This document shows, one piece after another, positions 13,701-52,593 of a DNA stretch of 64,000 nucleotides. The stretch lies in contig OY253672.1 of the NCBI GenBank assembly GCA_958009085.1, forward strand, positions 868,001 to 932,000. Direction: 5' to 3'. Numbering within the stretch: the first letter of the stretch is position 1; each line of letters begins with the position of its first letter. The stretch is from Protoeuglena noctilucae (lineage: Eukaryota). Both the position numbers and the translations under genes were made by a program. Under the pieces are notes generated by a model, which saw nothing but the letters and a program-made list of their open reading frames with translations, was not told the origin of the DNA and ran no database searches.

Positions 13701-14816
13701 GTCCGATGCGTCCTCTAGGCACAGGATGATGTACTCCTGCTGCTCCATCTTGCCACGCACCATGGCCTCCACCTGCGGAGACGACCAGGCGCCGCTCGCC
13801 GGGCCGGCCGCGCTCCCGGCACAGACCAGCAGGGCGTCGGTACCCATGCCTCGGCCCCGCTACAGCTGCTGCCGCTTGCGGGAGTGGCAAGGCTACGACG
13901 CGGACTGCGTGAAAAGTGGATCCACACCGACCACGACTGACCTGCTTGGAGGCGTGGGCGAGGGAGGAGGACGACTTGCGCTGCGAGGGCGCGGCCGAGA
14001 TGAGGCCGGGGGTGTCGATGATGGTCAGGTTGGGGCAGTACTTGTACTCCATCTTGACGACGATCTCCTTGGCCCAGAACTGGTTGTTCTCCGCCTCCAG
14101 CCTGCGATTCTCTGCCTCGATGTACTCCTGGAGCTCCTCCAGCGTGACCTCGACGTCGCCCTGGTCGTCCGTGACGATCGAGCACTTGGGCTCGACGCAG
14201 GCCGAGTTGTAGATCATGTGCAGCGTGATGGGGCGGCGCGTCTTGGTGCCGCCACCCACGTGGTTGAACTGGAAACCCATCAGCGCCTCGACCAGCGCTG
14301 CGGACGGGCACGCAAGGGCGACATCAAGACCCTGGTAGGCCTCGCTGGGACCCAGGCAAGGCGCGCCTGCATGCAGGAGGGCACTTACCGGACTTGCCGT
14401 CGGTCTGGTGGCCGACGACGAGGATGGCTGGGGCATCGAATGGCTTCTGGAAGTCCTGGGCCAAGGCGTGCAAGTCATTGTAAGCCTCATACAGGCGCTC
14501 GTTGCCGGTGCGGAACTGGTCATCGCTGGCGTTAATCGCGGGGCTGCGACGCTGAGAGGCGTTCCGGGGCGGCTGGTGCTCCTGGCGGACACAGCGGACG
14601 GGGGCGCAGGTCGGGGGGGCGCGATGTTGCACGGGGCCGCCCCCGCAGCGGGGCGCGGGTCGAGGAAGGCGGACAGAAGCGCAGGGGAGGCCATGAGGGA
14701 TGGACAATCGAGAGCGGGGGAGAGAGCGCGGGGCGCGGCGAAGCAACAAGCGCCCACGTTTGACGACAATGGCGCCGCAGCTGGGGGCGCAAGCACGGCT
14801 CAGCGGGCTGCGTCAT
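10736..14816 (-). CDS. ARC5: Chloroplast division dynamin ARC5/DRP5B, multi-exon
   Basis: LYEAYNDLHALAQDF, VVGHQTDGKSALVEALMGFQFNHVGGGTKTRRPI, YKYCPNLTIIDTPGLI, LFGGAQYHRAMAEF and ELKFNCFFLMP. Start codon uncertain. Confidence 0.93.
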
Positions 14817-30800: not shown

Positions 30801-33335
30801 GGTAAGGTACACGCATCGTGAGATGCATCGGCCCTTGATGAAGGCCTGCTGGCTGAGGGGGATGATGCGTTGGAGGACGGGGCGTAGCCGGGAGTTGAGG
30901 ACCTTAGCGAGGACGCGGTAGACCACGTCATTGACTGAGATGGGCCGGAAGTCCGAGGGCTTGCAGTCCGTGGCTTTGGGGAGCTTAGGAATGAGGGTAA
31001 CGGTGCTGTTGAGGAAGCAGGCAGGCATGAAACCCGTCTGATGGATGGTGTTGAGGAGGAGAGTGAGGAGAGGAGCGTAGAGGTGGGCGTAGCGTTGGTA
31101 CAGGCCAGGCGGCAGGCCCATGGGCACCGTGGCGCTGTCAGGCTTGAAAGAGTGGATGGCCGCGAGGACCTCTTCTGTAGTGATGGTGGCATCAATGCTC
31201 TGCTGCTCCTGGTCAGTGAGCGTGCGCCCAGAGTTCTGGAGGACCTCCAGCACGTGGTGCTGAGCAGCTGGATTGCGGGGTCCGGGGCGCCCCACTGTCT
31301 CAAAGTGGTCCACAAGGGTATCCTCGACCAGGGCCGGTTCGGAGAGGAGCTGGCCGTCAGCGTCTCTGACGCTGGTGACTGGCGGGGAGGGCTTATCTCT
31401 GTCAGGCTGGAGGGCATGGGGGAGGGCCGAGGCTGGCACATCAAAGGACCGGGTTTTGTTCTGCCGGTCGAGGTTTGCGAGGGCATGTTGGTAGTAGTCG
31501 AGGATTTGGGACCAGAACGAAGTGGCGTCTTCGCCGTCACGCACTGCTGCAAAGTACTGCTCCCGCAGAAGCCGCAGCTGCTGCTTCCGCTGGTTGATGT
31601 ACTGGGACTGGTGTGCGTACCAGTGTCGGGCAATCTCCTGGATGGCATTGGCTGTCTGCTGAACCCAGCGCTTGGCGGTGCCGGGGGGAGCGGTGGGCCC
31701 GGGGTGGGCCAGGATGGCAGTGGACACAGCAGCCTCCTGCAGAGGCTCGACCTGCTGGCGGATCTCGTCCACAAGGAAGGACGCGTGCGGGTGGATGTTG
31801 GCGGGGTGCCGACGAGAGGTCCGGGGAGTGTCACGCAGGAAAATGTACACGGGCGCATGGTCAGAGAGGGCGATGTTGGCAGGGTGGACGCGAGCGGTGG
31901 CATCAGAGCATTCCGTGCGGAGGGCAACGGGCTGGTCCCGAGGGACGTAGAAACGGTCAAGTCGGTTCTTCCATGACTTGTCATGGGCCATGTCCCGGCG
32001 CGTGGGGACTGCAAATGGCTTGTTGTGGTCCTGCTCCCCGGCATCAATGAGGCCCAGGACGTCGATTTGGGCTTGCAGCTTCTTTCGCAGGGTGGTCTGC
32101 ACCTCAGAGGTGGACTGGTGGTTCGAGGATGAGGCTGCCATGTCGGCTGCGAGGACCATGTTCCAGTCCCCACCCATGAGGACCAGGCCGAGTTCGTGGG
32201 ATGCGAGGCAGTCAGGGAGGAGGGTGGAAAGGACGTAGTCTTTGTCAGCGGCGTCTTGGGGCATGTACACGTTGACGAGGGTGTAGTGACGGCTGGCCAC
32301 TTCGACATCAAGCCGGGCCACGAAGCCAGTGAGGCGGGCAGTGTCAGGTTCGGTCCAGGTGTGGAGGAGGTGGGAGCCAGGCTGGTTGCAAACGAGGATG
32401 GCCACCCCAGCCCGATGGGCTGAGGGCCCCTTGCGCCACACGTGGTGGCTGAGGCGCGCGAGGGACGCAAATGCGGCAGGGGGCTGATCCAGCTCAGTCT
32501 TGAGCTCTTGAAGGAAGACAAAGGCAGCGGGGGGAGCCAGCCATGTGTGGGGGTGTGCCTGGATGAGGCCAAGCAGCGCCTCCTGTTTCATGAGAAAGTT
32601 ACCATTGAGGTTGAGAGTGAGGGCAGTGAGGTTGGCCAGGCCTGGAGAGTGAGGCGGAATCGCCGGAGCCGGCCTTGCGGCCTGAGGTCGTGAGACGTTG
32701 GCCAGCGGTCGTTTAGACCGATTGGGGGCAGGTGCTACGAGCTGCGGCTGAGCTGGAGAGAACCCGGCCTGGAAGGGTTGGCCCTGGTCGCAAGCCCCCA
32801 CGGGTGCGGATGTATCGGAGGAAGGGGCCTGAATACGCAGGCGCTTTGCTGTGCTACGTGTTGTCGCCATTTTTGTACTGCAAGAGGACTGATTCGGCGA
32901 AAGATAGCGGCGCCGTCCGGAGAGAGATAAGGAGAAGAGGCGTTTGTTGTTCGGAAAGCCAGCAGGAGAGCCGAGATAGAGTAGCTAACAACGGAGAGTC
33001 GACGGCAAGAGTTGGAGGTCACAACGAGCAAAGCACTTGCTACCGCGGTGATGTCGTTAGGAGAGGAGCACATCGCTTGAAAAAGACGGGTTGGATTTGC
33101 TGCCGCGGGGAGCAGAGGGGGCGATGACGGCAGAGCGTTGTGGTTGGCCTCAGACGCCGGAGTAGAGGGCCAGACAGGCCAGGAGAGGGGCCCAGAGGCC
33201 AAATTGTATTCGAAAAGCGCAACGAGGCGCGGTGTAGTCAAAAGGCGGGTCCCCGGGGGGTCCCCGGGGGTGGGGAGGGGTACGCGCACGCGAGCCCTCC
33301 CCCCCGCCGCCAGGCCGGACGGCACTACCACGCTC
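27873..33335 (-). mobile_element. L1-clade non-LTR retrotransposon (LINE) with intact APE-RT ORF and poly(A) tail
   Basis: Intronless 1600-aa ORF, about 180 nt of 3' UTR, then A15 (T15 at 27873-27887 on the + strand). The 5' boundary is approximate and no TSD was found. Confidence 0.9.
28068..32870 (-). CDS. LINE ORF2-type polyprotein: AP endonuclease + reverse transcriptase + C-terminal Cys/His motif
   Basis: APE: TLNLNG, FLQE, VNVYMP, GGDWN, RLDRFY, SDH. RT: FRPIS, DFAKAFD, GVRQGCPLAP, QFADD, KYLG. C-terminal CPLC..H....C. Confidence 0.95.
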   Translation of the reverse strand: MATTRSTAKRLRIQAPSSDTSAPVGACDQGQPFQAGFSPAQPQLVAPAPNRSKRPLANVSRPQAARPAPAIPPHSPGLANLTALTLNLNGNFLMKQEALLGLIQAHPHTWLAPPAAFVFLQELKTELDQPPAAFASLARLSHHVWRKGPSAHRAGVAILVCNQPGSHLLHTWTEPDTARLTGFVARLDVEVASRHYTLVNVYMPQDAADKDYVLSTLLPDCLASHELGLVLMGGDWNMVLAADMAASSSNHQSTSEVQTTLRKKLQAQIDVLGLIDAGEQDHNKPFAVPTRRDMAHDKSWKNRLDRFYVPRDQPVALRTECSDATARVHPANIALSDHAPVYIFLRDTPRTSRRHPANIHPHASFLVDEIRQQVEPLQEAAVSTAILAHPGPTAPPGTAKRWVQQTANAIQEIARHWYAHQSQYINQRKQQLRLLREQYFAAVRDGEDATSFWSQILDYYQHALANLDRQNKTRSFDVPASALPHALQPDRDKPSPPVTSVRDADGQLLSEPALVEDTLVDHFETVGRPGPRNPAAQHHVLEVLQNSGRTLTDQEQQSIDATITTEEVLAAIHSFKPDSATVPMGLPPGLYQRYAHLYAPLLTLLLNTIHQTGFMPACFLNSTVTLIPKLPKATDCKPSDFRPISVNDVVYRVLAKVLNSRLRPVLQRIIPLSQQAFIKGRCISRCVYLTCATLELLDQSDEGCFIIFNDFAKAFDTVDRPFLRRILETLRFGETFCTWFDIMHTPSATYQLKLGRGLSRGYNVSTGVRQGCPLAPSLFILVALALHELVASNPDIKGLPVPGPNKPPLYAFRTDKRLAQESLISQFADDTEFVQATVQSMHNLFQALDTFHQATGLRSNPAKTGIIPAGKWNTDPAALHQHLTAAQAHGLDSLVYDHAQQRWMLDGYWITPPGGEPAAPVKYLGTLMGPTGIVPTDYSSFVASIYTQLLRLRPHNIPLLHRWKIVKTFVLSRLIYATTHCPMDFSPGKPGALLLRYIQRYVLTESPKTQRIPPEIDRNELYHPVSRGGLQAQHVPFHQAALRFKMIQLHASGADPLFSNAIHQHLVRSLKYKATVKCDGQRYETTLSIPVGPHICALTAKDWAELTPTPLIRDLFSATSMFPATQLLPPPQPYASPPTLNDLWVHLTPMLRAPLLFNPHNPLSFPANFVHSRSTDPSHQRLLLDATARQIWAAIIPILEPLQRAFPLVSSLIIPRAHNGRLGLKDPDDVLTTLMVPALGSYMARQIRLDFVSALSAHLSINSPGHPGLPANAWNDVRGPTVLSVFPHDFIHRISGFRAQGWSQYFSMHGHSLGPTYHPLASITPQAHHRAFVVAKYSTDKPCQRLLEDSSPHLAHAATAALARPQANPAHLATASMAWLAVTDRLPTYSDLQGKPCPLCLERHGTSLHDLAESCRTAQVVWHSVFQSLPPLSWQYLNRCLAHPPVGPSGLCPDRGTPTALLFRFGATHASSDLLRSPAWRLLWSETLHAIITARRYWRTGHPLPGAPPMLLLDLPDAPAWTRAARIVSYASHRISSAMACHHRLSSPAAASMLQLLHDPSLPHGVFFKAISVTQNLFSSFPPLPPPQPPPNRRVPLEPG

Positions 33336-33884
33336 TTAAAGAGCATGGTTGTGGCCCGCCGGCCTGGTTGGAAGGCCGCGGCTTGCTCACCTGCCGCACT
33401 CGCCACCGCGCATGCACGTAGCTATGCGGCCAGCGTTCCCAAATTCGCCTTCTCCTCTACCTGCAGGACTCGAGACCAATCTCGACATCAACTGTGTTCT
33501 TACTGTGTTCTTCGTCAAGTCAATGCTCTCCGCACCGTGACACGCGATGGCAACTCTTCAGCTCGGTAGGTCAAGAGCACCGAGTGCCAGCGGCACGCAG
33601 ATTTCTGTTGCCTGTAGACCATTGATGTTTCTCCGCGCATCCATCCTGGGCATTTCCACATCTTCAGGCCTCGGATAGTGGCAGGTAAGGCCTTGGCGTG
33701 GTGTCCGTGGCAGGTGCAGCTGGGGCCTCCCTCGGCAGGTGGGTCCCTGCCCCCGATAATGGCCGCGACAACCCCGGCGGCCTGCGAATGTGCATCCACC
33801 CGTCCATCCAAGGTCACAAACCATGTCAGGCACGCCTCCCTGTGACGCATCCGCAGGGCAGCAAGGACATCACCAACCGCCACC

Positions 33885-34784
33885 ATGCGGTCGCTCGCGC
33901 GCCTCAGCCCGATGGCCGTTCGGGCCCCCTGCCAGTCAGCGCAGCAGCGTTTCGGCTCCTCCCTCTCGGTGGCGACGCGGGCGGCGAGTCCGGGCCACGG
34001 TGAGACGACGGGCACTGCAGCACAAAATCATTTCTCACATGGCGCGGCGTCGAAACCCAGCACGCGTTCCCCATGGCGCAGGCGACGGGGGCTCCTCGGA
34101 GAGCGGCTCATTGGAGAGCAGCCAGGAGGGCAAGGCGATGCGCCGCCAGGAGCGCAGCACGCCCCGTCGCCTCGGCCTGCAGAGCCCCGAGGACCTCTTT
34201 CAGCGCGAGCTGGACACAATCCGGTCGGTGCTGGACCTGTGGTCGCGGGGCCCGAGCCCCACGGGTCTGCTGCGGCCATTCGACATCGTCCGCGACCTGG
34301 CGGGCGAGACGGAGCCGTTTGGCGACCTTGGCTCGCTGGCCATGAACATCGCGGAGGACGAGGAGGCGTTCACGGTCACCGCGGATGTGCCCGGGCTCGA
34401 GCGCAAGGACGTCCACGTCCAGCTCCACCCGGACGGCACGCTCGAGCTGTGGGGGGAGCGGCGCACCGAGACCAAGAGAGAGAGTGCCCGCATGCACGTG
34501 CAGGAGAGGCACTTTGGCCGATTCAGGCGAGCCGCGTGGAGGGTATTGCCGCCAGCTGGGCCTGGCACGCGTGGTTTTACCGTGACGTGCTGCGGGGTGA
34601 GTTGATGGGCCTCGTCACCCGCCGTCTCCGCAGCCGGGAAGTGATGCTGCCCAAGGACCGCATCCAGGGCGACAAGATCAAGGCGTTTATGCGCAACGGC
34701 GTACTCACGTTGACGGTGCCCAAGGTCCCTGGGGAGGCGCACCAAGCGCAGGCGAAGGACATCCCCATTGAGGTCGGGGAGTGA
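33885..34784 (+). CDS. HSP20: Small heat-shock protein (HSP20/alpha-crystallin), probably organelle-targeted; 3 exons
   Basis: FTVTADVPGLERKDVHV, ERHFGRFSREVMLP, IKAFMRNGVLTLTVPK and C-terminal IPI. Exon 1 is transit-peptide-like. Confidence 0.92.
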   Translation: MRSLARLSPMAVRAPCQSAQQRFGSSLSVATRAASPGHGETTGTAAQNHFSHGAASKPSTRSPWRRRRGLLGERLIGEQPGGQGDAPPGAQHAPSPRPAEPRGPLSARAGHNPVGAGPVVAGPEPHGSAAAIRHRPRPGGRDGAVWRPWLAGHEHRGGRGGVHGHRGCARARAQGRPRPAPPGRHARAVGGAAHRDQERECPHARAGEALWPIQASRVEGIAASWAWHAWFYRDVLRGELMGLVTRRLRSREVMLPKDRIQGDKIKAFMRNGVLTLTVPKVPGEAHQAQAKDIPIEVGE

Positions 34785-35889: not shown

Positions 35890-37619
35890 GATTCGTCCAT
35901 GCAGCGAGAGACTGCGACAGAAGGCGAATCACGGGGGTCGTGCCGAGGCGGGGACCGAATGCCCTGTCCGCAGAGATGCACTCCCCGCAGCCGGCGTTTT
36001 GGACTATGACACGGCGGCGGTCGCGACGGGCGCACAGGGCGCGCGAGGACGCGGGGAGCCAAGGCCAGGGCAAAACTGACCCGTAAGTTGCAGAGCTCGG
36101 CACGGCTTGGAAATATGCGGCAATCAATGAGAAGCGCGCACGGTCTGGCCTCCGAAAGCGTCGCGTTGCAACGCCTGAAACTCAATCCGCCTGGCATCTG
36201 CTGGCCTGCGGGTGCGAGCAACGAGCTACGGCGTCGCGTCTCTGCTGCCGAGCTACACGCGCACGCAGCTCCGGTCCGTCGGAAGCGAGCCCTCACGGCT
36301 CGCCTGAGCATTACGGCCGCGGCGCATGCCGGCAGGGTCCAGCGGGCCTGCTTCGCGCCGGCACAGCTGCTGGACGCGCCGTGCGATTGTATGTTTCAGA
36401 ACGCTCCCCGGGGAGAGGTGGCGACGCCTCCCCGCGGCTCAATACGCTCGGTGCGGCCGCGACAGCGGCGTAGGGCTGGGGCGCCATGATGTGGAGGCTA
36501 TGGCTTTCGCTTCTCAGCGATCTCGCGCACTGGCGACGTGATGGTCGACAGGAACCGGCTGGCAGGCTTTGATGTGGAAAAGCTGTGCCAAGGGTGGGGC
36601 CGTGCCTGGGTCACGAACCAGGGGTTTAGGGACCACGATCGCTGGAAAGCTGCAGGGCTTCGCTGGGTGTGCGCGACGCTAGTGGCGTTCTAGACTAGCA
36701 GGCAAATCGCAAGAATCGAATCCGGAGCGCATGTGCCGTGCGCTGAGCATGGGTCAGCACGTCTGACATAATCAGAAACTGGGCGGACCAGCGGTCCGTC
36801 CGTGTTGGGGGGTGCAACTCCTCCCGCCGAGGCATCTTCAGCGGCCGTTCTCCGCGTCCATGTAGCGCTTCGAGTGTGCTGGACCGCTCGTGCTCTGCGG
36901 CACCTGTGCGTGGCCTGGCAGCCCGAGCAGTCGGGGACCGCGGACTGCGCAAGTGCGAGCTGGCGCAGGCGGACGGTTTGCACGTGCCAGGGCGTCGTGT
37001 GGGCGGGGAGAGAGGCGCCGCCGTCCGTGCTTCGCAGGTGGTGGTTTGAAGTACCTCCGGGTTGGGCGGGGTCTGTGAGCTGTCGTCGGGGCTGCAGGGG
37101 TGAGATGTTCATCGTGTCATTTGCGCTTCGGCGCCGCAAACGCGCGCGAGGGCGCGGTCGGAGGCCATTGTGCTATCGGAGCACGGTGGGGTCGCACCGG
37201 CTGCCCGCGCGCGCCGGTCCTGAGCGCCTAGTTGCGCGACGATGTTGCAAGGGGTGCCCCGGAGCGCCCGTGGGGCGGCCCTCCGACGAGGGCCACCTCG
37301 TCCCTGCGTCTCCGCGCGCCCCCCGGGCCCCTTGCGGTTGCATCGTCCCATTGCCGAGATTTCTACGTCGTTCGTGGCCCCTAGAGTGCGCCGCAGCTGT
37401 CGCCCCGCAAGCACGGGGGACGTGCCGCGTGATGTATCTCCGAGCACGCCCTCGCCACTCCGCCGCGCACCCGGCGCCCGCAAGAGCGGCGTTTGGGAGC
37501 TGCTTGGGTCCCGCGCGGCCGGGGCGGCAGCGCCCGGGGCCGCCACGTCGAGCGAGATTCCTTGCGCTCTCCGCAGGCGCCCCGTGCTGGCCAGCGGCCC
37601 GCGCTGGAGTCACTCGTGC

Positions 37620-40600
37620 ATGCGGTCGGGAGAGAGAGAGGAGGATCGCGACGGCCTGAACGTCCTGGCCGACGCTGCGGCCGTCGGCAATGACTCGGCC
37701 GGGGCCTCGAGGGCCGCTGCGGGAGAGGATGCGGTGAGCGAGGAGGGGTCTCTGTCCGGTGCAGCCGGGGCGCGGGCCCGCCGGAGCGGCACCCGGGGAG
37801 CCCGGCGGGGCGCCATCGTGCCGCCAGACTGAGATGAGCCCGCACGGCCGGTTCGGCCGCCCGGCTTCGCGCGGCAGCGACGGGTGCCGTCGGGTCCTCT
37901 CCGCAGGCGTTCCCAGCGCCGAGCCTGACGGACCTCGTGGAGTACAAGGTCCTCCAGACGGGCGCGGATGTGCTGGAGCTCAAGTACACGAGCCAGGACA
38001 AGCAGGTGCGAGGGACTTGCGGGAGCGCGGCGCTGCTGGGACGCGCGGGTGCGAGTCGGACCGGCGGAGATTACCGGCGCTTGCAGATCAACATTAACGA
38101 GGTGGCGTCCCTGGAGTGGGGCGGGCTCTCGGGGCTAGGGGGCGAGGCGACCATCGTGTGGCGGGGGCAGCGGTTCGTGGACCCCAACCGTTTCGCGAGG
38201 TTCGTGTACCAGGTCAAGCTGAGGGAGCTGAAGCAGCAGATGGCCGGGCGCGAGAGCGGGGGCGACCCGGGCGGGGTGACCGAGGTCAGCCGTGTCAAGG
38301 GCTGGCAGACGGTCAAGGACGCGGTGTCCAAGCAGTCACTGGAGGCGAGTGGTTTGCCGGGGCGAGGGGCGCGCCCATCTCACGATCATCCCCGCCGACG
38401 TGCTACGTGCTCCCGCCCGTCCGTGCTCTGCAGAAGCTGCGGGGAGACCTGAAGCACAAGCTCGCGAGGGAGCTGGCGACCCCCGCCAAGTCGACCGGGG
38501 GCGCCAAGTCCCGCGGCCGGTCTCCGGCTACGCGGGCCCAGGACGAGGAGGAGGAAGCACCCACGTGGACACTGACGGGTGCGGGCGGGGCGGTCAACCC
38601 GCCTGCGCATCCACGGCCCGCTGGGGCTGGGGTTTCTGATCGCCCTTGGTTTACGTGCGGACGCAGGGACCGACGTGAGAGAGGACCCCATCCTGAGGCG
38701 GCTGCTATGCGCACATGACGGGTGCACGAGCGTGGCCAAGTTTGGCGCAGATGGGGGGCCCCCACGGCACTGCGCGGCGCACCGGGGCGACGGGAACGTC
38801 TTGTCGGACTCGCAGCTGTGCAGCGAGGGCGACTGCCTGGCCGTGGCGCTGTGGGGAGCGCCGGGAGGGCCGGCGACGTGCTGCAGGGCGCACCGGCGAG
38901 AGGACATGGTCCTAGCGTCGGACCGGCTCTGCGCGCGGGACGGCTGCAAGCGGCCCGCCACGCACGGGGACGCCGGCGACGTGCCGCAGCACTGCGCGGA
39001 GCACGGGTGGATGGCGGGCGGGGTGGAGGTGACGCTGCCCCTGGCCGAGGCTTCGGGGGAGAGCAAGGCGTGCGGCTGCGACGGCTGCGATAACCTGGCG
39101 ACAGTGGGAAGGCCGGGAGTGGGCCGGGAGCGCTGCGAGCTCCACATGGAAGAGGGCATGCTGAGTTGGTGCTCGTACGCGGCCTGCCCGCGGATGGCGG
39201 AGGGCATGCCGCCCATTTGCCGTCTGCACTGGGTCCAGCAGGAGCGCTGGTTCCCCGAGGACGGCTCGGATGGGGAGGAGAAGGCGGGAGGTGAGACCGC
39301 AGAGGGGTTCATAACGGACGACGCAATGTGCGTCTGGAAAGCGAGATTCGCCGCCCCGTGGGACCGAAAGCGGGCATGTGATTGCTATCACGCTTACTCA
39401 TAGACCACTAGAAATGAATGGATAGATGCCGGGGCCCGTCCGTCGCAAGCTGTGTGTGGTGCTGTGCGCCATTACTGTGCTTCGGGCTCCCGCGCGCACT
39501 CGCTCGCTCGCTGGCATCTAGCGGCCCCGCGGTTCCCGCAGATGCTGGCGATGGTCAGGAGGAGGAGGTTACCGGCGGGGCGGAGGCCGCGGAGGAGGCG
39601 CGGCCGGGGGAGGCGGCGGAGTCGCAAGGAGCGTGGCTGGGACCCATCGCGGTTTCGCGCAACAGCATCCGGAACCCGAATCTTAAGATGAAGTACACGA
39701 TGCCAGCGCGGGGAGAGCAGTTTATGGCGATCCAGGCCGCGGTGCGGAAGGCCCTGCACAAGCCGGCCAGCTACCGCGTGACGAGTCCGTCGTTCACGGT
39801 CGGCCACAGCCTCCGCTGGAGCCCCGCGGAGCTCAAGAAGCACGCCACGGAGGTGCTGTCGAGCAGCCCGGACGTCAAAGCCGCGTTCGAGACACTTTAC
39901 GCGGCCTGCAAAGGAGGCATCGAGGACGCCATCAAGGCGGCCCTGGGCGGGTGAGTGGCAGCCGTGCAGGGACACAAGTGGGTCGCAGCGACGACGTTGG
40001 TGGGGACCCGTCCCTCACCAGGCGCTGGAGATGCGCCACAGCGCTCTTTTGTGATTTGTGTGTTGATGTGTCTGGACTCCCTCTCGCAGATGGGAGGCTG
40101 CGGTGAAGAGGTCGCTGGTGGAGGCGGCGCAGACGCACAAGCCCGTCCTGGTGGGCGCGCGGTGTGATGAGGGGAACTGCACGCGCCCTCCGAGGTATGG
40201 GGCCGAGGGCCAGCTGCCGACGCGATGCGTGCTGCACAAGCAGCCGGGGCAGGTGGAGCTGAGGGGCAGGTGCGCAGAGCCGGGGACCTGGCCCACCTGC
40301 GGGGAGTCCCCCTGCACGAGACGGGCCACGTTCAACAAGCCTGGGGTGCTGCCGCCCGTCGCCTGCGCGCTGCACAAGACAGCCGGCATGGAGCTCGTGG
40401 TCCGGCTGAGCAAGGCCCCGAGGTGCGGATACGGCGACTGGCGAGCAATCTGCGCGCCGGGCGGGAGCTGGGCAGACGGGCATGCACATGCCTGGCAAGA
40501 GACACGATTGCACCAGACAGTACACAGCAGCTTCCTCTCTGTCTTGCCCGCAGCTCTGCGCCGCGCGCGGGGGCGTCTGCTGCGCACGCAGGCGCGAAGG

Positions 40601-43600
40601 GACCGAAGGTGGAGGTGCGGGGTGGCTTGGCTGCGGTGGGCCAGCCCGCGCCCCAGGCCCTGGCGCCTGCCGTCGCTGACGTGGCGATGGCGGAGGGGGA
40701 CGCCGTAGACCGCGCGGGCGCAGCCGCGGCTGGGGTTGCAGGCGGCGATGGTCAGGCGGTGGCGGTGGCGCCATTCCCGGTCGCACCGGGGGCGGCTCTG
40801 GGGCCGGCGCTGGGCAAACGGCCGGCGGAGGGCAACGCGGCGGACGAGGCGGAGAGGAAGAGAGCGCGGAGCGCGACACAGTTCGACCTGCCGGACACCG
40901 CGCTGGCGGCCGGCGCGCCCGGGCCGGACGCGCCCGCGCAGGAGGAGCGGGCGGAGCTGGGGGCGGCTCCCAAGCTGCCCGCGCCCACGCGTATGCAGAC
41001 GCGGGGCCGCCACGTGGTCATCCCCGGGGTGAAGCGGGTCGAGAAGGTGGACACGGAGGCGGGGGTGGGCCCGCTGCAGAGAGGGCCGCTGCCAGGCGGG
41101 GCTGGCCAGGGCGCCACGCCTGGGGTGGACCCGGGGGTGCCTGTGCCCATCGCGCCCCTCGCCCCCAACGCGCGGCCCGTGCTGCCGATCGGCGGGGAAG
41201 GTGAGGCCGCGCGTACAGGCTTCGCGGCTTTGGCATAGTTCTGTTGTCCTGAGCCACGCCGACCACGCCTTAGGTCACTGTCGAGAACGCATGAAGCTGC
41301 ACCTCAAGACCTGGTGCTCGTTCGCCCTTTGCCTGCAGGGTTCGTGGTGGGGATGGAAGCGGACGACGACGAGGACTTTGGTGACGGCAGGGCCGTGCCG
41401 GTGGTCCCTCGCCCTCCGGCCTACACGCTCAGTGAGTGTCATTGCCAGGCTGGGACGCGTCTTCGCATCGGCGATGCCTGGGCCGTGTTGCGATCGCGTA
41501 ATTCTGATTCTTTCGTGGCTAGTGGCGCTGGCCATGTCGCCGACGAAGGGTGAAAGGGAGGGAGGGCTTGCACACGTGCCGAGGGAAGGGACCTTACAAC
41601 CTGATGCGCTCTCACCACCTCATAACTCGTCGACCCCTCGCCACCCCCGCAGTGCGCAACGACGAGACGGGCAAGCCCATCGAGAACATCAACGAGATCA
41701 TCAAGCTCGTCACCATGCAGATGCCCCACCGCAACGTCCTCGGGAACGACGAGGAGCGGCAGGCCGCAGATCGTGCTCTGGACAAGGCCATTGCATTCCT
41801 CGTGTCGCTCCTCGTCGGATACGTCCTCAACTCGGTGGTGAGCGCTCGGGCCGCCCCGCAGCTGATTTGAAGCACACCTGTGCGCGTCATGTGTCTCGCA
41901 CCCTTGTCAAATGCCTTGTGGCCCACACCGCCTGCATGGCAGTGGCCCACACCACCTGCATGGCAATGGCCCCGGACACGGCAAGGTGGCTGGGAGTAGT
42001 ACCTTTGCCGCAGTAAAGCACTTTCTGACTCTTTGTTCTCGCCTGTCGCCCCCCGCAGTACCCCAGCGGGCTCGTGTGGAAGAGCCTCCCGACCGTGCTG
42101 CGGCGGCGGGTGTCGACGTTCCTGCAGGGCCTGCCCGAGGTGCTCACGCGCGAGGCCAAGTCCACCCGCAAGATCGAGCAGTCGAAGCCGGAGATGTTCG
42201 ACGCCGCCATGGACATGCTGGGTCTGCCGTCCTGGGAGCGCATGGTGGACATCCTGACCGACACGCAGCAGCGGGGGCGCGCGCGGCGCAACCTTCTCTC
42301 CATCTTCAACGGCTGGAAGGACGAGCTGGAGCGGCAGGGGCAGATGCGGGGGGTGTTCGAGTCGAGGGTGAGGGAGGTCGTGCACCGACTGGTCACCACC
42401 ATCGCCGAGCAGGCCAAGAGGTCCTACGCCAACTCCCCGGGGCACTACGCCGCCACCATGAGGCTCCTGGCCTCCACGGCCGCCTCGCAGGCGCCCCCGC
42501 CCAAGGCCAGCCGGGCGGGTGAGTCGAGGGCTGTGAGGATGAGGACGTCCCACAACACAGGCAGGCTGGTTGTGATGCGGGGTTCGTTTCAATTCGATCG
42601 TTGCGCAAACTAAGCAGTGGGGCAGGCGCACCTCCTCGCGACAGCACGTGTGCTAACAGTATGTTGGCGCTTTTATGCTCTCCTGCCGCAGGGGGCCGAG
42701 CGCCCAGGGAGGCCCGCAGCAACCGCGCCGCGCGCTCGACCACCCCGACGGCCGCCCGCGGAGGCGCCAACGGATCCCGGCGCCGCGCCTCGTCCCCGGC
42801 CAAGGACCCAGCCCCAGCCGAGCCGCACGAGGGCCCCCCCGCGGCCGGGTTCAGCGACGCCTGGCAGCCGCAGTTCCTCGACGCCATCGCCACCATGCCC
42901 ATGCCGGGCTTCCCGGGTGCCCCGCGCATCGACGCCACCTTCCCGCCCTTCCCGCTGACCTTCCCCCGCCAGCCGCCGCCCGGGCTCGGCATGCCGCCCC
43001 GGCCCTGGGGCCCGCCGCCCCACTGGCCTGGTGCCCCTTGGATGCCTTTCGGCATAGGCCCTTTCGTGTCCACTGAGCCCATCGGCCTGCGCCGCAATAC
43101 CCTAGACGACCTCGCCCACGTGGCCAGCCAGGACGTGTCAGAGTCTCCCATGGAGGCGAAGAAGGCGCTGCGGAACGCGCCGGCCTCCGCGCCCGTCGGG
43201 ATGGGCCACGGCATGGCAGTGGTGAGTGCGGTGTGAGAGAAGGGTCGTAGACGTGGGGGGTCTGTCAAGGGTTCTGGATGCTCGGGCAGGCACTGCAGGG
43301 GTTCTGTTTATGTCGAGGCATGCGCTGGTGCGGAGATGGTGCTGCAGGGGCGGTGCAGCAGGGGCCTGTTAAGGTGCCGGGCTTGGTTTCTGAGCTGTTG
43401 ATTCGACGGTGGTCCATTGATGGTTCATTACGCCTTAACGACTTTTAGTCACCTCTCTGCGTCTCGCTCACCACGTCAGCCACCTCTGTGCGCGTTGCTT
43501 ACCACGACTGAACACAGAAATCTCCGCCGTCCCCACAGGGTGTCGGGCCGAGGGACGTATGGGCAGGGACGGACGACATGACCCCATGGCGCATCGGGGA

Positions 43601-46600
43601 GCCCCCAGAGCTGGTGACGGCCCTCGCCGTGTCCTCGGCGGTCCTCGGTTCCGGCAGCCAGAAGGGATCGGTGTGGCTGTGGGACCTGCACGGGCACGGG
43701 GCTCCCGAGGAGTTGACTGGGCACGCGGGGCCCGTGTCTGTCGTCGCCTTTGCGGCCAACGGGGCGCTGGTGCTCTCCGGCAGCGCGGACGGGTCCCTGC
43801 GCGTCTGGACCGTGGCTTCCAAGCGGCCTGTGCTCACGGTGTCGGCCCAGGTGGGGCCCATCACCTGCATGGCGGTGCGGGAGGCGGCCGACGGGGGCAG
43901 GGCGATCGTCGCAATCGGGGGCACGTCCGGCAAGGTGGAGGGGCGGCGGCTGTTCTACAAGCCGGGTCAGGTCGAGAACGCCACGATTGAGCTGGCCTTC
44001 GCGGCGTGGGAGGCGCACGCGGGGCGGGTGGTGGCTGTGACGTGGCACGGGGACTCGACGCTGGTGACGGCGGGCGCGGACACGGCGATCCGCGCGTGGC
44101 GGCACCCGACGAAGCGATCGGACTGCGTCACGGTGCACGGCTCGGGGACCGCCGTGACGGCCTTGGCGGGCAGCACGGCCCCGGGGTTCGGAGTGCTGGT
44201 GGGCGATGCGTCGGGGGCCATTTACGCCATCGAGGGGCTGCCGGACGCGCCGCGCCTCAAGGCCCTCGACCTGACCTGCCGCAAGGGCGTGGCTGCGCTG
44301 GCCGTGGACTCCCAGGGCCGGTCTGTCCTGGCGGGGGCGCGCGGGCGGGTGGCGGCGTGCGTGTACGAATGGACGGGCGCGGACGCGGCGGGCTCGGCGA
44401 GCCTGGAGCTCACGGCGGGCCCCGCGCAGGGTGCGGTGTCGCTGGACGAAACGCTGTGCGTGGCGATCAGCGCGGACGGGCAGTGGGTGGCGCTGAGCAG
44501 CAAGCTCGAGCCGGGGCAGGTGTTCGTGCAGGAATTACACAGCGGGGAGCGGCGGACGCTTAGCTTGAGTCCCGCGATGGGCGCCCGGGCCCAGGGGGCG
44601 TGGGGCGCGGGCGTGGCGCATGCGCCTGGGGGCGACTTCGTGCTGTCGCTGAATCTGGAGGACCGGGAGAGTCGGGAGCAGCTCGCGCGGGCCAGCGGCG
44701 CAGCGGCGCAGCGTTTCCAAGTGAGCCAGTGTGTCGCAGGGTGTTGTCAGGGTGTTGCCAGGCTGGCATGGGGAACGCCGTGCGATGCCCAGGCAGGGCG
44801 ACCGGGTGCCCAGAGCGGGGCCCGCCATCGCATATAATACATGGATGCTCGTTCTCGTTAGGCCAATTTCTTGTGTAGTATCAGATGGAGTGCCTTTAAC
44901 GCTACGTACATCATGGCGTGGCCGCACGGTCCAACGGCAGTCCACGCACGCACCCCCGCAGGACTTAGCGTTTTCAGATGACGTGGCTGATTTCCGTATC
45001 ACTGGCAAGAGTCTCTCCAGGATCGCCGAGGCGGTGTCCGTCCTCTGCAAGAGCATGGTGCGATGCTGCTAAGCTTTACCTCGCACATCCATGCCTGCAC
45101 CGCGCATGGCTCGCCCACACTCCCCCACTCCTGCCGCTCTCCCCGCAGTCATTCTCACGCGTCAGCGGGCAGCTGGTCGTGCCCAGCAGCCGCGGGGCTT
45201 GCCTCTTCAGGGACGTGAACAGAACGACAGTGAGTGCGCCTTGCATCTCACGTCACTGCGATGACCCGGACCCCTCCTTTGCCCATCCGTGCCCTCTAGC
45301 ATGCCTTCTCTCATCTGCCACCATCGCATGACTGCACCTGTCTGCGCCCCAAGTGACACTTCGCCTGCCTACCGCCGCAGCTACCCTCGCTGGTGCGGCT
45401 GCAAGTCAACGCAGCGGATGCAGAGACTTCCGTCCACTTCGGCATCTCCACGCGCAACGACGCGAGCGCCACCGCGAGCGCCCCGCAGCAGCTGGGGAGC
45501 CTGATGGCCGCCTTTGCGCAGCGCATGTCCGCGGTAGTCACGGCGAGGGCCGCACGCCGCGCTACGTGCTTTGACCGTGTCGTCACGTTTCTCTTGCACT
45601 GACCATACCATCACGTCCATCTAGCATACATGAGCATCCATGAGCCATCTTACTGGATCGTTGTTGATCTATGGCCCATGCGCGTACGCTTGGCGGGGTG
45701 GCCGCCATGTCTCATTGCAGGCAGCATGACGCACAACCCTGCCCGCTTCCGTGCGCAGGAAGAGGTGCGGACGCAGACGTACAGGGTGGACGGCGCGGGG
45801 GACAGCATGTGGACGTTGGAAGGGTCCGGGTCGGGGTGGGGAACAAAGCCGGCGCCCACGCTGCCAGCCAACCAAAAGGTAAAGGACACAGAGAAAATGA
45901 CGAAAGGGATGAGCGAGGGAGACGGAACGGGGGCGCGGGGGGGCTCAGAGCCGGTGATTATGCGGGAGGGTGGTGCGGGTGCCGGTGCGGGTGGCATTGT
46001 TGGTGGCGGTGCAGGGATCCCCCTCACAGAGGGCGAGCGGTGCTTGTTGACATTCCGCCTCGAGGAAGGCCCCGTGGTGACGGAGTTGGTGCGTGTGATG
46101 ACCTTGCTTGACGACCCGACGGGAGAGCTTGTGGTTTTGGAAAGAGAGGCGCCATCAACAGATGTAGGAGACCTGGTGGTGTCGGTGAGCGGCAGCCTGC
46201 GTTTCAAGACGGGTGGCAGGGCCGCCTGGGTGTGGGGAGGGAGGTAGTTTTGCTATGGACGAGCCCGGAGGGTTGCTGGGCGGATGGGCATGTGGCGCAG
46301 GTGGCGGTTGCTGGGGTGTGGCTGCAGGTCCCCATGCCTCGCTGCCTCCTCCACGCTTGCAGGTCTTGCGGGCAGACATAACGAAAGTAAAAAACAAGGA
46401 CAACTTTGTGGCGGAGGCAAGGGAGAAAGCGGCCGAGCCACCTATCCCGCAGCAGGCCACCGTTGTGGCATTCAAAGATTCAAACGTGCTCCTCAAGCTG
46501 GGCCAGGGGCGGGGCAAAGTCGTATCAGTGAGTCTGCGTGGCCGTTGCCCATGCTTTTTCCCCATGCTGGCTCACGGGTGGGGCGTACGGGCAGGGGGTA

Positions 46601-47088
46601 GTACAGGCGGGGCGTCGGGCCAAGGCTGCAGCAGAGGCGTCAAATGAGTCCCTGTGTTCCCTCCCTCGCAGGTGCCGCTGGAGTGGATTCGGGTGGTGAC
46701 GGACCCCTCTCATCCCGAACTGGAGAGCGTTATGATGCCGCTGTTGCAGAGATTCCGGGACATGCACAAGCGAGACCCCGAATGGCAAGAGAAGTTTGAG
46801 CGGTGGGACCTGGGGGCGTGGTGGTACAACCGCAAGCTGCACTTGGGCGAGAATCCCGCGGCGCCCCCGAGCAAGGAGGCACTGGCGCGGCGATCCCAGC
46901 GAAATGACACCATGCTGACGGCGCCGGTGGGGGCGATGGGGCTGCGCGACGGAGAGACGCGGACGGTACTTGTCGAAGAGCACACCGTGGAGGGCGCGCA
47001 TGCCTGTCCAGGCCGAGGTGACGAGATGATGGGGGGAGGGCGTGGGAGTGCAAGGTTTTATACGCGCTCCGGTCCAGTTTCGGAATGA
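37620..47088 (+). CDS. ~2,100-aa multidomain protein: RAMA-like domain + 7 EsV-1-7-type Cys/His repeats + unknown helical regions + WD40 + possible Tudor/SH3-like barrels
   Basis: About 19 exons join in frame through phase-compatible splice sites, including intron 43222-43538, which links the N-terminal half to the WD40 exon. The true start may lie further upstream (e.g. 37242). Confidence 0.72.
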
Positions 47089-47416
47089 CGAGAATGCAGA
47101 CACCACCAATTCGCATGTGCGTTGCTCATTAGAGCGGATTGAAGCCAGCAACGAGTACACTGACAGTACGGCCAATGCATGGAGAGAGTCGAGAGTTCAA
47201 TGCCGTTCATGCGCATGGGGCTCTGGCAGCCAATGCCGAGCGTCTAGACAAAGCTTCAGGCATGGGGTGATGGGGAGAGGGACACGCTGGCAGGCGCAGG
47301 GAGCAGGGAGCATGCACTACGTCGCCACAAGCAGCACGGCAGCGACACGCGTGGGTAAGCCCCCACGACACCCCGTGAATTGAGGCATCGCATTCGATGG
47401 TGCCGCTGCTCACTGC

Positions 47417-49917
47417 TCACACCGTCACTAACGCCTTCTCCTTCCACAGCTGCACCAGGCGCTGTGCCGCCTCCTTGCGCTCGCTCAGGCTCTGCAGATG
47501 CCACGCACACAGCACCTGACATCACTGCTTCTCTCTCGCCACGGTCAGCGCCTGGCATCACTGCCCATCTCATCACTGCCCCGCCATCGCCACAATCAGC
47601 GTCTAACCTCCACAGCCCCGCTCTCTCACGCTGCCAGCTGCATGGCGCGTTGTCTGCACAAACACAACTCATTACCCTCACCTTGCTGTTCTCCGTGAAC
47701 GACTCGGAAGTCTCCTCGAAGCTCGCGACGACGGGGGCAGAGGGCTGCACCGCCTCCTTCTCCTCCACCTCCTCAGCCACCACCTTGTCCTCCGTCTTGC
47801 TCTCAGCCTTGTCCTCCATCTTGCTCTCAGCCTTGCTCTCAGCCTTGCTCTCAACCTTGCTCTCCACCTTGTTCTCCACCTTGCTCTCGGGCTTGTTCTC
47901 AGCCTTGCTCGGCACCTGCGCCCATCACATGACCATCATCACCAACGCCTTCCCGTGTCGCCCGGCCCGCTGCACCCTTGCACAGACGCTCCGGTGGCAC
48001 GCATTCCGAAGCCACGTCGGATGCACAGCCAGGGCGCTCGTCTCATGCACAGCCGACGCAGCCCACACGCCACATGCGCCTCTCGCCTCGCTCGCCGTCG
48101 ACTTGCTCCCCTCGTCCAGCAGCGCCTTGGCCACCTTCTTCAAATCCTGGCCCGCCTCGTCCAAAGCCAACTCCTGCCCCACCTTCTGCGCCAACAACCA
48201 CCGAACACAACACCCATCAACCGTGCCCGGCATTGCCGGGCGCTTTAGAGCTCAACGCTGGTCGCTGCAAGCGTTCCTCTTCCCCTGAAAAATGCTCAGT
48301 GCGCTTCCCAACATGGCTACGGCCCTGTGGTTCCGTCCTACCTGCACGAACCGCCCTCGCCACCCCTCTTCACTCGCCTGGATGGCCCCGACCGTCTCCC
48401 GGCGCGTGTCGGCGAAGAGCAGGCGCGTGAAGGCAAGGCGCGCGATGGCGATGGAGCCGATGAGCTCCATGACCGTCTCCATCTCATTGAAGAGAACGAA
48501 CCCCGCGCCCGCCAGCGCCCCCAGGGCCAGGCCACCCTTGGTGAGCGTCGGGGAAGCCTTAAAGTCCTCCGCCAGGTTGTCCATGCCAGACTTGATGTTC
48601 TTCAGGTCCACGCTCGGAAGGCTGCGGCCGAAAACCCAACGGAGGTGAGACGCGGCGACCCATGGGACGTCGCGAGCACAGAGCGCCACCCTTGGCCCAC
48701 ATGGGGTCGCCTCGCAGGCATCCATTAGCGAGCGATGTTCATCAGCAGGCACCTGAAGGTGAAAGGCTCCTTCCACGGCACTCCGGCGCTCTTCCACGCC
48801 TCGGCGCCACCGGAGACGCAGACGACCTGGGTCACGCCCGCCTCCTTGACGGCAGCCTCCGCAGCCTGGCGCGCCAGCTTGCCGTCGTTGTCGAGGATGA
48901 CAACCACCGTATCGGGCTTGACGCGGCGCTTCAGACTGGTGACGAACTGCGGGCGGCGGGTTGAGGGAGCGGCTCAATTCCCGCCCACCTCACCAAGCCG
49001 TGCGTGCTCGGTTGCCGGAGAACGAAATCAGGCGTCAGCTGGTCACCTGCTCGGCGGGGACGACCTTGCCCTTGACCAACTTCGTGAACGGGATGGCCTC
49101 GGGGCTCTTGCGGAGCTGGCGGAGGTCGGGCGAGCCCGTCTTCTTGGCCTGCAAAACACGCCGTGCACGGCGCCGTCGATGCATCCGCCGCTCCGACATG
49201 GCGATCCCGAACGCGCTGAGGACGAATTTGGAGGCTGACGGCGCCGGAAGCGCTCACCTCGGCTAACGAGCGCACATCGACGAGCACGGCCTCAGGCTTT
49301 GCTTTCAGAAGCTCGAAGGCCTTCGAGGAATCGAGGGTCTTTACGGCCGACCCCTTGCTCCGGAAGGCCAAGAAAGCGGCGCCCCCCGCCACGAAGGCCG
49401 CGCCGGCGCCTCCCGCGGCAAGAACCAGCGGGTCCTCCGGCAGCGCGAAGTCGACGGGAGGGAGCTCGGGCTGGGGCTCGGGGACGTCCAGGGACGGCGC
49501 CTCGGAGACCTCGACCGCTACAGGAGATGAGGCAGGCGTCTTGGCTTCGACGGCGACCTCCAGGCGCACGGGTTCCCTGCACCGGCAGACGAGCGCACCA
49601 GAGGTCACCATCATCCGAAACAAACCAGGCGTCCGCGGGCTTTCCGGGGCCCGCGCGAGACAAGGAGGGAGCTTGAACTAGACGAGGCACGATCGGCGAT
49701 CGGCCGCCGCCCCCGTCCGCCGCGACGCTTTTCCCCCAGACCTGCGATAGCCCTTCGCGAGCGCATCGTAGGCGGAGGCGTCGATCGCCAAGGCGGGGCT
49801 GGCCGACAGAAGCACGACTGCCAGGGCGACATCACGGCTCGCGGGGTGCGCGCGCGCGGCGACGCTCGGCCGACTCGCGCGCCCCGGGAGGGACATGCCC
49901 TTCGCCGACAACGCCAT
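47417..49917 (-). CDS. Thylakoid rhodanese-like protein (TROL/STR4-like), multi-exon
   Basis: Transit peptide with ALA cleavage motif, TM helix, rhodanese domain (AVLVDVR, GSPDLR, VVILD..G, GGAEAWKSAGVPWKEP), then EMETVMELIGS..RLLFA. Confidence 0.8.
47780..47912 (-). repeat. 12-bp coding tandem repeat (K-x-E-S/N/D)n
   Basis: Encodes KAENKPESKVENKVESKVESKAESKAESKMEDKAESKTEDK. Confidence 0.85.
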
Positions 49918-51577: not shown

Positions 51578-52593
51578 TCAGATATCGATGGTTCCTGCGA
51601 CGTAGTCGGGCTCCCCAAACTCGCTGGTGGAGTCGGACTCGGCCGCATGCCTCGGAATGCCCTGCGGGCGGGTGACTCGCCTCGTCACTTTGCGCCAACC
51701 TAGCTCCCTGCCCCGTGCGGGCTCGTGGCTCGTGGCCCCGCGGAACGCACCTGGCAGCAGAGGTAGAGGAGCCGCTTGAGTTTGCGGTTGTAGAAAAAGT
51801 AGTTGAAGCTCCACACGCTGCCGTCCTCCCCGAACGGGTCGCTCTCCAAGTCCGTCTTGTACGAATAGACGTCGCAGTCCTTCAGGTCCACGGCCTCGTC
51901 CACCGCAGACCAGAGCGCTTGGCTGCGGAGCGGGGACGCGACGGCCTGCCTTTGCTGCTTGCGCGCCGCTACAGCGGGGAGCCTCAGCCAGCCACCGCAC
52001 CTGAGCGGCTGCTCTCCGAACCCGGGCGTGTCGTCCCAGACCTTGGACGCCTCAAGCAGGCGCTCCTCGATCAACTCCTCGGCTGCGCTCAGGTTGACCT
52101 CCTTGCGGAAGTGGTGGGCCCGGAGGAGCGAGAAGTCGTAGTCCGGGTACACGTGGTTCAGCGCGAGGATGAGGTGGGCGAGCGTCCGGCGGCTCGAGGG
52201 CTCCGTCATCGGGCCCACGGGCGAGGCCCCGTACAGCGACCCCACGCGCGGCGACGCGGCCAGATCGAGTTGGAAGGCGTCGTCGAGGGACTTGGAGAGC
52301 TTCTTGTCCAGGCCGGCCAGCTTGCACGAGAAGACCTGCGCAGCGCCCTTGACGACGAACTCCCCCACGTTGACTTGCTCCAGGAAGGAGTGTATCCGCT
52401 GGAGATTCGAGAAATCCAGTAGCTTCTGCGTCACGAACGCCGGGAAGTCGCGTCCGCGGCGTCGGCGGGGCCACCATTCCGCGCGATGACGCCGCATCGG
52501 GGCAAGGACCGTGGCGGGGCGGGCTATCGCCCTCCACGCGGCCGTGCCGCCCTATCCGCCGCCCGCGCTGACCACATCGCACCGCCTCACCAT
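51578..52593 (-). CDS. MAF1: RNA polymerase III repressor MAF1; first coding exon is ATG only
   Basis: M|KLLD, FSCKLAGLDKKL, SRRTLAHLILALNHVYPDYDFS, DCDVYSY and WSFNYFFYNRKLKR. Confidence 0.95.

Follow-up and report, generated by a model that had tools for sequence, protein, structure and literature searches.

EsV-1-7 proteins make up a large family common to algae and their giant viruses, and the Phaeoexplorer preprint, in its passages on the motif, describes them as a possible new zinc-finger class. The type member, and the sole one characterised, is IMMEDIATE UPRIGHT (IMM) from Ectocarpus, which is built from tandem C-x4-C...C-x2-H units (five, according to the Phaeoexplorer Methods). According to the Methods of a 2026 preprint, no Ectocarpus EsV-1-7 gene carries another Pfam domain, IMM and the other members of this alga having no other recognisable domain. 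Here we analyse a window of 64,000 nucleotides (nt) from Protoeuglena noctilucae (contig OY253672.1 of assembly GCA_958009085.1, positions 868,001 to 932,000 of the forward strand; all positions below are those of the window), in which a gene on the plus strand, at 37620..47088, contains the same tandem units, five plus two of them. Unlike IMM and the other Ectocarpus members, its product adds to them a WD40 propeller and about 1,200 amino acids (aa) of orphan sequence and, in contrast to the tandem arrays of EsV-1-7 genes, the present gene is single; its host is marine and planktonic.

The locus is one expressed nuclear gene of 19 exons, encoding a modular protein of 2,141 aa in a high-GC marine eukaryote, presumably an alga, and we are highly confident of both the gene structure and the domain content as modelled (Table 1). 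From the N-terminus, the protein consists of an acidic tail, an orphan domain of ~120 aa, five EsV-1-7 units, a further orphan domain, another pair of EsV-1-7 units, a long linker rich in Ala, Gly and Pro with a motif resembling a nuclear localisation signal (NLS), a helix-like orphan domain, a Pro/Trp-rich linker, the propeller and an orphan C-terminus of ~450 aa. An initial annotation of the locus, made from the sequence alone, had matched the architecture to no characterised protein, and our searches, which covered proteins of up to 2,000 aa, turned up no relative that shares it. The passages covered of the EsV-1-7 literature contain no description of a fusion between EsV-1-7 and WD40 either, and with moderate confidence, for proteins within that size range, we regard this fusion as new as an architecture. 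A transcribed fusion of seven EsV-1-7 units with a WD40 propeller offers a natural route to what the repeats bind and recruit.

One expressed gene of 19 exons

GC content is 62-70% throughout the window, and the reading frames are fragmented, as they are in intron-rich eukaryotes. In the initial annotation, what look like separate open reading frames (ORFs) had been joined by 13 introns into one frame of ~2,100 aa. All 13 stand at the positions proposed, 12 of them with GT..AG ends and one (38345-38433) with GC..AG ends, and their removal leaves a single open frame from the ATG at 37620. When those 13 introns only are removed, this frame ends at 45072, so the list was incomplete at its 3' end. 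With five introns added from RNA (45058-45148, 45230-45380, 45543-45758, 46185-46362 and 46528-46671) the frame continues to the TGA at 47086-47088, which is the end coordinate that the initial annotation had given, for a total of 2,141 codons plus the stop. Frame, splice sites and RNA contigs thus agree on one giant spliced gene. Its introns number 18, of which 16 are GT..AG and two GC..AG; since RNA joints from two runs bear out the second of the latter (45543-45758), GC donors are used at a noticeable rate in this host.

The RNA comes from four marine metatranscriptome runs of one study, which contain 45-60% of the sampled words of the region, and all of these words are contained in four DNA runs labelled with one organism. 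Three of the RNA runs (X1, X2 and X3) and one DNA run (X5) were aligned over 36500-48500, X1 and X2 being two samples of one study (P1); the joints and pieces reported here are those among the rows listed for each run. The contigs of X3 are unspliced (genomic DNA or pre-mRNA), and this run is therefore uninformative on splicing.

The central piece of evidence is a 4,040-nt contig from X1 (record 1), which aligns with 0 differing letters and spans exons 5-13. Its pieces (38666-39288, 39540-39949, 40552-41198, 41653-41836, 42058-42517, 42691-43220 and 43538-43971), between which the remaining stretches match the lengths of exons 7 and 9, show that one assembled RNA carries both the EsV-1-7 exons and that for WD40. 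Inside this contig lies the joint 43220>43538, which is in frame, occurs in both X1 and X2 (side 255 each) and is absent from DNA run X5, where the same stretch is covered in one piece. The splice across 43222-43538 into the WD40 exon, as proposed by the initial annotation, is thus found in RNA, and rather than transcripts that end near 43240 with an independent WD40 start we see a contig that crosses the joint. The 3' part is covered by a 2,204-nt contig from X2 (record 7; 43924-47148, exons 13-19), and its six joints (44720>44962, 45056>45148, 45229>45381, 45541>45758, 46183>46362 and 46527>46672) occur in both X1 and X2, corresponding, after allowed shifts, to five GT..AG introns and one GC..AG intron. 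Further upstream, the joints 41431>41653 and 41836>42058 are also seen in RNA. Altogether, X1 and X2 have in common ten listed joints on the plus strand with GT..AG or GC..AG ends, and X5 has 0 of them.

The 13 introns first proposed are backed to different degrees. Five are directly listed in X1 and X2 (41432-41652, 41838-42058, 42519-42691, 43222-43538 and 44721-44961), and 39291-39541 is shown by adjacent pieces of the 4,040-nt contig (record positions 948|949), the arithmetic of which also implies, without listing them, introns 38579-38666, 39951-40089, 40423-40553 and 41201-41338. The first three (37734-37906, 38006-38086 and 38345-38433) are absent among the listed RNA rows and are based on splice consensus and codon bias. 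This gives a measure of the trust that intron calling from raw sequence deserves: the 10 introns (of 13) that are testable in the listed RNA rows are all consistent with them, and 0 are contradicted.

Codon-position GC backs the gene model independently, with a GC content at third codon positions (GC3) of 0.86 over all exons, compared with a GC of 0.64 over all introns, and a GC3 of 0.88-0.94 in exons 2-4. We take the ATG at 37620 to be the start codon. Upstream, the frame stays open as far as 37224 and contains a further ATG at 37242, and the stretch upstream of 37620 has no periodicity (GC by codon position of 0.70/0.77/0.77), whereas exon 1 is periodic (GC2 of 0.58 vs GC3 of 0.79). Towards the 3' end the values are lower: GC3 is 0.67-0.85 across exons 14-19, and 0.67-0.75 in exons 14 and 17-19, compared with 0.84-0.98 in exons 2-13, which may reflect a different constraint on the 3' part or a separate history of it.

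Loose ends present in RNA only were observed at 37690, 39579, 43201 and 45807 (in X1 and X2), and the continuations of the first three were not found within the 64-kb window. They probably belong to other transcripts that share short GC-rich words with this gene. The joint 39600>45787, with 21 letters on one side and CG..GG ends, was rejected as a real splice and is read as a word match from another transcript.

EsV-1-7 units, a WD40 propeller and a possible scaffold

The EsV-1-7 repeats are present as initially annotated, with two matches to Pfam PF19114 (EsV_1_7_cys) that lie well above its gathering score of 25 bits: block 1 (ORF 38576-39400) reaches 78.2 bits (E 4.1e-22) in 4 stretches and block 2 (ORF 40067-40705) 58.9 bits (E 4.4e-16) in 2 stretches. 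A motif scan resolves them into seven C-x4-C-x(10-16)-C-x2-H units, the first five spanning aa 220-393 and the last two aa 575-645. These seven are all the units in the gene's frame within the window, where one further motif match, in an unrelated minus-strand frame, is probably due to chance. By analogy with zinc fingers, each of the seven may hold a zinc ion. The one lead towards zinc binding is a non-significant PDB match of the fifth unit to the MDM2 zinc finger (E 0.19). With EsV-1-7 exon 5 as the query, no orthologue was found among longer proteins (364-2,000 aa), a range outside which an orthologue of 2,141 aa would fall.

The WD40 domain is equally real. Exon 13 matches Pfam WD40 (PF00400) with 55.6 bits (E 5.3e-15; gathering score 27 bits), and its AlphaFold2 (AF2) model, obtained with a 22-row alignment, is an all-beta propeller of 27 strands (mean predicted local distance difference test score, pLDDT, of 71.5; predicted template modelling score, pTM, of 0.72). 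A Foldseek search of this model against the PDB gave at least 500 matches at E<=0.001, with the seven-bladed propeller 7bie_A at the top (E 1.3e-15); on its predicted structure, exon 13 is a generic seven-bladed WD40 propeller. Among its structural neighbours are designer propellers, a Thermomonospora WD40 protein and the scaffolds U5-40K (SNRNP40), RACK1 (Asc1), WDR5, UAF1 and PRPF19. With these scaffolds it shares the fold (Foldseek E 1e-15 to 1e-13; template modelling scores of 0.5-0.76, normalised to the target) and the Pfam WD40 repeats, but the identity to the matched propellers is 14-21% and no single subfamily is favoured.

In sequence, the WD40 exon has 316 matches at E<=1e-5 among proteins of 691-2,000 aa, the 120 listed of which are all generic WD40 proteins, mostly bacterial and with 20-46% identity. 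The best of these matches are to long bacterial proteins of the multi-WD40 and STAND types; the present protein has no Walker A motif (0 matches to [AG]x4GK[ST] in the 2,141-aa model). For this reason, and with no nucleoside triphosphatase (NTPase) Pfam match in any exon, its identity as a STAND (NACHT / NB-ARC)-WD40 NTPase was rejected.

WD40 propellers are protein-interaction platforms. Based on this general knowledge and on the proposal that EsV-1-7 is a class of zinc finger, the explanation that we favour overall, with moderate confidence, is that of an expressed EsV-1-7 and WD40 gene whose product may act as a nuclear scaffold or adaptor; the protein is probably lineage-restricted, and the nucleus is hinted at by one NLS-like motif, of the bipartite type, at aa 749-766. 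As to how such a scaffold might operate, we can offer a tentative mechanism by analogy, in which the seven C-x4-C...C-x2-H units would bind one zinc each and provide multivalent binding to nucleic acid or protein, the propeller would serve as the docking site for one or more partners, and the flexibility of the long linkers would allow each end of the protein to act on a target of its own.

A number of points weigh against a scaffold encoded by this gene model. On the functional side, zinc binding by EsV-1-7 itself is a proposal, the NLS-like motif is one regular-expression match in a low-complexity linker, and no experiment or relative links any part of the protein to a function. The three orphan domains and the linkers, about 60% of the protein, match nothing, and the true activity may lie in them. 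On the side of the model, the RNA rows listed lend no support to introns 1-3 or to the start codon, and the RNA consists of assembled contigs from two samples of one study, not of single long molecules, the contigs for exons 5-13 and for exons 13-19 being linked only via their overlap in exon 13.

The RAMA question, the other orphan parts and the number of products

Of the four kinds of domain called by the initial annotation, EsV-1-7 and WD40 are the two that stood; the RAMA-like and Tudor-like calls found no support, and the functional idea attached to the gene (a reader of modified DNA coupled to a protein complex) is left unsupported, because it rested on them. For RAMA (PF18755, known from MPND and from the C-terminal domain of CcrM), exons 2 and 3 scanned singly give no Pfam match at E<=10, and the ORF that contains them gives none at E<=0.1; of the two profiles that the initial annotation had named, this protein matches that of EsV-1-7 and not that of RAMA. 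When exon 2, exon 3 and the in-frame intron between them (intron 2) served as the query of an exhaustive phmmer search, 1.84 billion representatives yielded two matches and 0 RAMA proteins: P0001 is an unspliced ORF call on this very DNA, and P0002, a bacterial HAMP-repeat protein, was rejected as spurious, covering query residues 42-75 across the translated intron only. With the N-terminal segment as the query, phmmer found 0 matches at E<=10 in the PDB, though this database contains the RAMA domains of MPND and CcrM.

Because the domain is split by an intron, a fairer test is provided by a custom profile, for which PF18755 matches were taken from 301 Actinomycetota genomes (13 of which had one at E<=1e-6). 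The profile was built from 10 sequences, after a fragment below the threshold and two sequences whose genomes are flagged as unpublished had been set aside, and the spliced aa 39-175 were scored against it with all filters off. They reached 1.0 bit, a score equalled by 289/3,000 shuffles (p about 0.10), while the left-out true RAMA domains scored 40.7-129 bits; the hhalign probability was 1.5%. The AF2 model of this domain, for which CcrM (6PBD) and MPND served as fold references, has a pLDDT of 45. Atlas leads to bacterial PH-like domains (0.77-0.84) were rejected as below the reliability marks.

It has to be considered whether the N-terminus is a divergent RAMA-type fold beyond sequence recognition, which would bind DNA, possibly modified with N6-methyladenine (6mA), so that a DNA-binding head and the EsV-1-7 fingers would be wired to a WD40 recruitment platform in a chromatin or foreign-DNA sensor. 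The 1.0-bit alignment, though non-significant, consists of two collinear pieces that coincide with the two motifs most typical of RAMA (G-x-F-SPS-AA and NGW-x-W...L..LR), look-alikes that occur here in the same order as in RAMA proteins and that, to judge from the sequence, are clearly what the initial annotation had noticed. Moreover, the N-terminal windows score best among 101 windows of 137 aa from the protein, acidic stretches flank the domain as they do in MPND, and the MPND structure paper, in the passages concerned, describes RAMA sequences as poorly conserved while the fold is kept, with which the failed sequence tests would be compatible. Set against this are those failures themselves (Pfam, the phmmer searches, the profile and hhalign). 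In addition, unlike MPND and CcrM, the protein has neither an MPN/deubiquitinase nor a methylase partner domain, and passages of the same paper dispute the 6mA selectivity of RAMA, a link that the initial annotation had taken as established and that is thus itself contested. We therefore consider a RAMA-type reader unlikely. If true, it would represent a novel type of algal protein that reads chromatin or foreign DNA, and would provide the first biochemical handle on the role of EsV-1-7 repeats; as the methylation idea failed its tests, no new DNA-methylation question is opened.

The Tudor-like call fared no better, although by a weak test: exons 14-19 scanned singly give no Pfam match at E<=10, and the candidate beta-rich segments (aa 1896-2012, 46026-46698) are split by introns 17 and 18. 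In sequence searches of the PDB, exons 17 and 19 have no match below E 0.4, and for the wider set of exons 5, 6, 11, 17 and 19 no phmmer match to the PDB falls below E 0.04. Exon 6, with the second orphan domain, has no Pfam or PDB match, and exon 11 has no relative in Pfam, the PDB or the word index and no orthologue among proteins of 269-2,000 aa (one of 2,141 aa would lie outside this range). The Atlas lead for exon 11, DUF7605 (0.91, 138 shared features), was rejected as below the reliability marks and lacking Pfam backing. In metagenome contigs, 119 pattern matches yielded 0 relatives.

Alternatively, the locus could give two products: an internal promoter would drive most of the expression of the WD40 3' half, as a separate transcript, or transcripts of the 5' half would end before the WD40 exon, and the joined form would be a minor read-through. 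Contigs are indeed blind to the starts and ends of transcripts, the lower GC3 of exons 14 and 17-19 fits a separate history of the 3' part, and one of the RNA-only loose ends, seen in X1 and X2 and unexplained, lies at 43201, 20 nt before the donor of the decisive intron. However, no GT stands at 43202, the continuation of this loose end is absent from the window, and comparable loose ends prove to be matches of 21-22-nt words to other loci. Furthermore, the canonical, in-frame joint at 43220>43538 occurs in both samples and lies inside a contig of uniform depth that contains eight upstream exons, and exon 13, which begins in phase 0, does not open with an ATG, its first Met being 13 residues in. 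Two separate products are, in our judgement, very unlikely.

Genomic neighbourhood

The flanks of the gene encode a GT2 glycosyltransferase, an Rce1-like protease, a dynamin, Dicer-like pieces, HSP20, Maf1, RPN2 and a LINE-type (long interspersed nuclear element) retroelement, and the housekeeping genes among them confirm an ordinary nuclear chromosomal context (Table 1). With these neighbours, a GC content matching that of the flanks and no close relative of its EsV-1-7 block found in IMG/VR or INPHARED, the gene looks like a resident cellular gene and not like a recent viral insert. That it is a domesticated giant-virus gene, from an endogenised Nucleocytoviricota locus, would accord with the naming of the EsV-1-7 motif after a phaeovirus gene, for which passages on the family argue a viral origin in brown algae, and with reports, in the portions at hand, of heavy intronisation in endogenised viral genes, but it is highly improbable given a gene GC of 0.67-0.70 equal to that of its flanks, 18 spliceosomal introns with a host-like GC3, cellular housekeeping genes on either side, no close relative of the EsV-1-7 block in IMG/VR or INPHARED (in close-relative tests or among phage records only) and nearest WD40 relatives that, among the matches listed, are cellular.

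Table 1. Positions of the gene's exons and domains and of neighbouring features in the window.
Feature	Position	Strand	Remarks
Exon 1, acidic tail, aa 1-38	37620..37733	+	presumed start; codon periodicity
Exons 2 (37907-38005) and 3 (38087-38344), N-terminal orphan domain	37907..38344	+	in-frame intron 2 between
N-terminal orphan domain, aa 41-160	continues into exon 4, to 38442	+	'RAMA-like' of the initial annotation
Exon 4, basic then acidic linker, aa 158-206	38434..38578	+	
Exon 5, EsV-1-7 block 1	38667..39290	+	five units 38708-39229, aa 220-393; on X1 record 1
Exon 6, acidic linker plus orphan domain 2 (aa ~441-560, extending into exon 7)	39542..39950	+	X1 record 1
Exon 7, EsV-1-7 block 2	40090..40422	+	two units 40163-40375, aa 575-645
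Exons 8 (40554-41200) and 9 (41339-41431), Ala/Gly/Pro-rich linker	40554..41431	+	exon 8 on X1 record 1
Bipartite NLS-like motif in exon 8 linker, aa 749-766	40816-40869	+	motif scan
Exons 10 (41653-41837) and 11 (42059-42518), orphan helix-like domain, aa ~908-1110	41653..42518	+	RNA joints
Exon 12, Arg/Ser-rich then Pro/Trp-rich linker	42692..43221	+	RNA joints 42517>42691, 43220>43538 (X1, X2)
Intron 12, 317 nt, GT..AG	43222..43538	+	decides fusion vs two genes; RNA joint X1, X2
Exon 13, WD40 propeller ~43596-44576, aa 1319-1645	43539..44720	+	Pfam, AF2, Foldseek
Exons 14-16	44962-45057, 45149-45229, 45381-45542	+	C-terminal orphan region
Exons 17-19	45759-46184, 46363-46527, 46672-47088	+	C-terminal orphan region; stop TGA 47086-47088
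C-terminal orphan region, ~450 aa	44962..47088	+	beta-rich segments 46026-46698
Dynamin-family GTPase	13168-14799	-	
RNase III-like frame	19257-21029	-	
Helicase_C frame	23351-24475	-	
LINE-type retroelement, single 1,638-aa frame	28071-32984	-	RVT_1 E 5e-24; endonuclease/exonuclease/phosphatase domain
HSP20	33760-34602	+	
Convergent neighbour gene	47180-48500	-	RNA CT..AC joints, e.g. 47491>47682
Maf1	51703-52551	-	E 1e-49
Proteasome RPN2 N-terminal domain	54316-55911	+	E 1e-49

No Rfam family was found in the window. The RNase III-like and Helicase_C frames, which lie on the same strand (19257-24475), are probably exons of one Dicer-like gene. The LINE-type element looks intact, and it coincides with a strong GC skew of +0.25 to +0.30 and a lower GC content of 0.62-0.63. 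On the other side, a poly-T loose end at 47180 marks the poly(A) site of the convergent neighbour, at a distance of only 92 nt from the giant gene's stop codon, and the neighbour's frame at 47259-47924 encodes a Lys/Glu-rich repeat made of ESKVE/ESKAE units.

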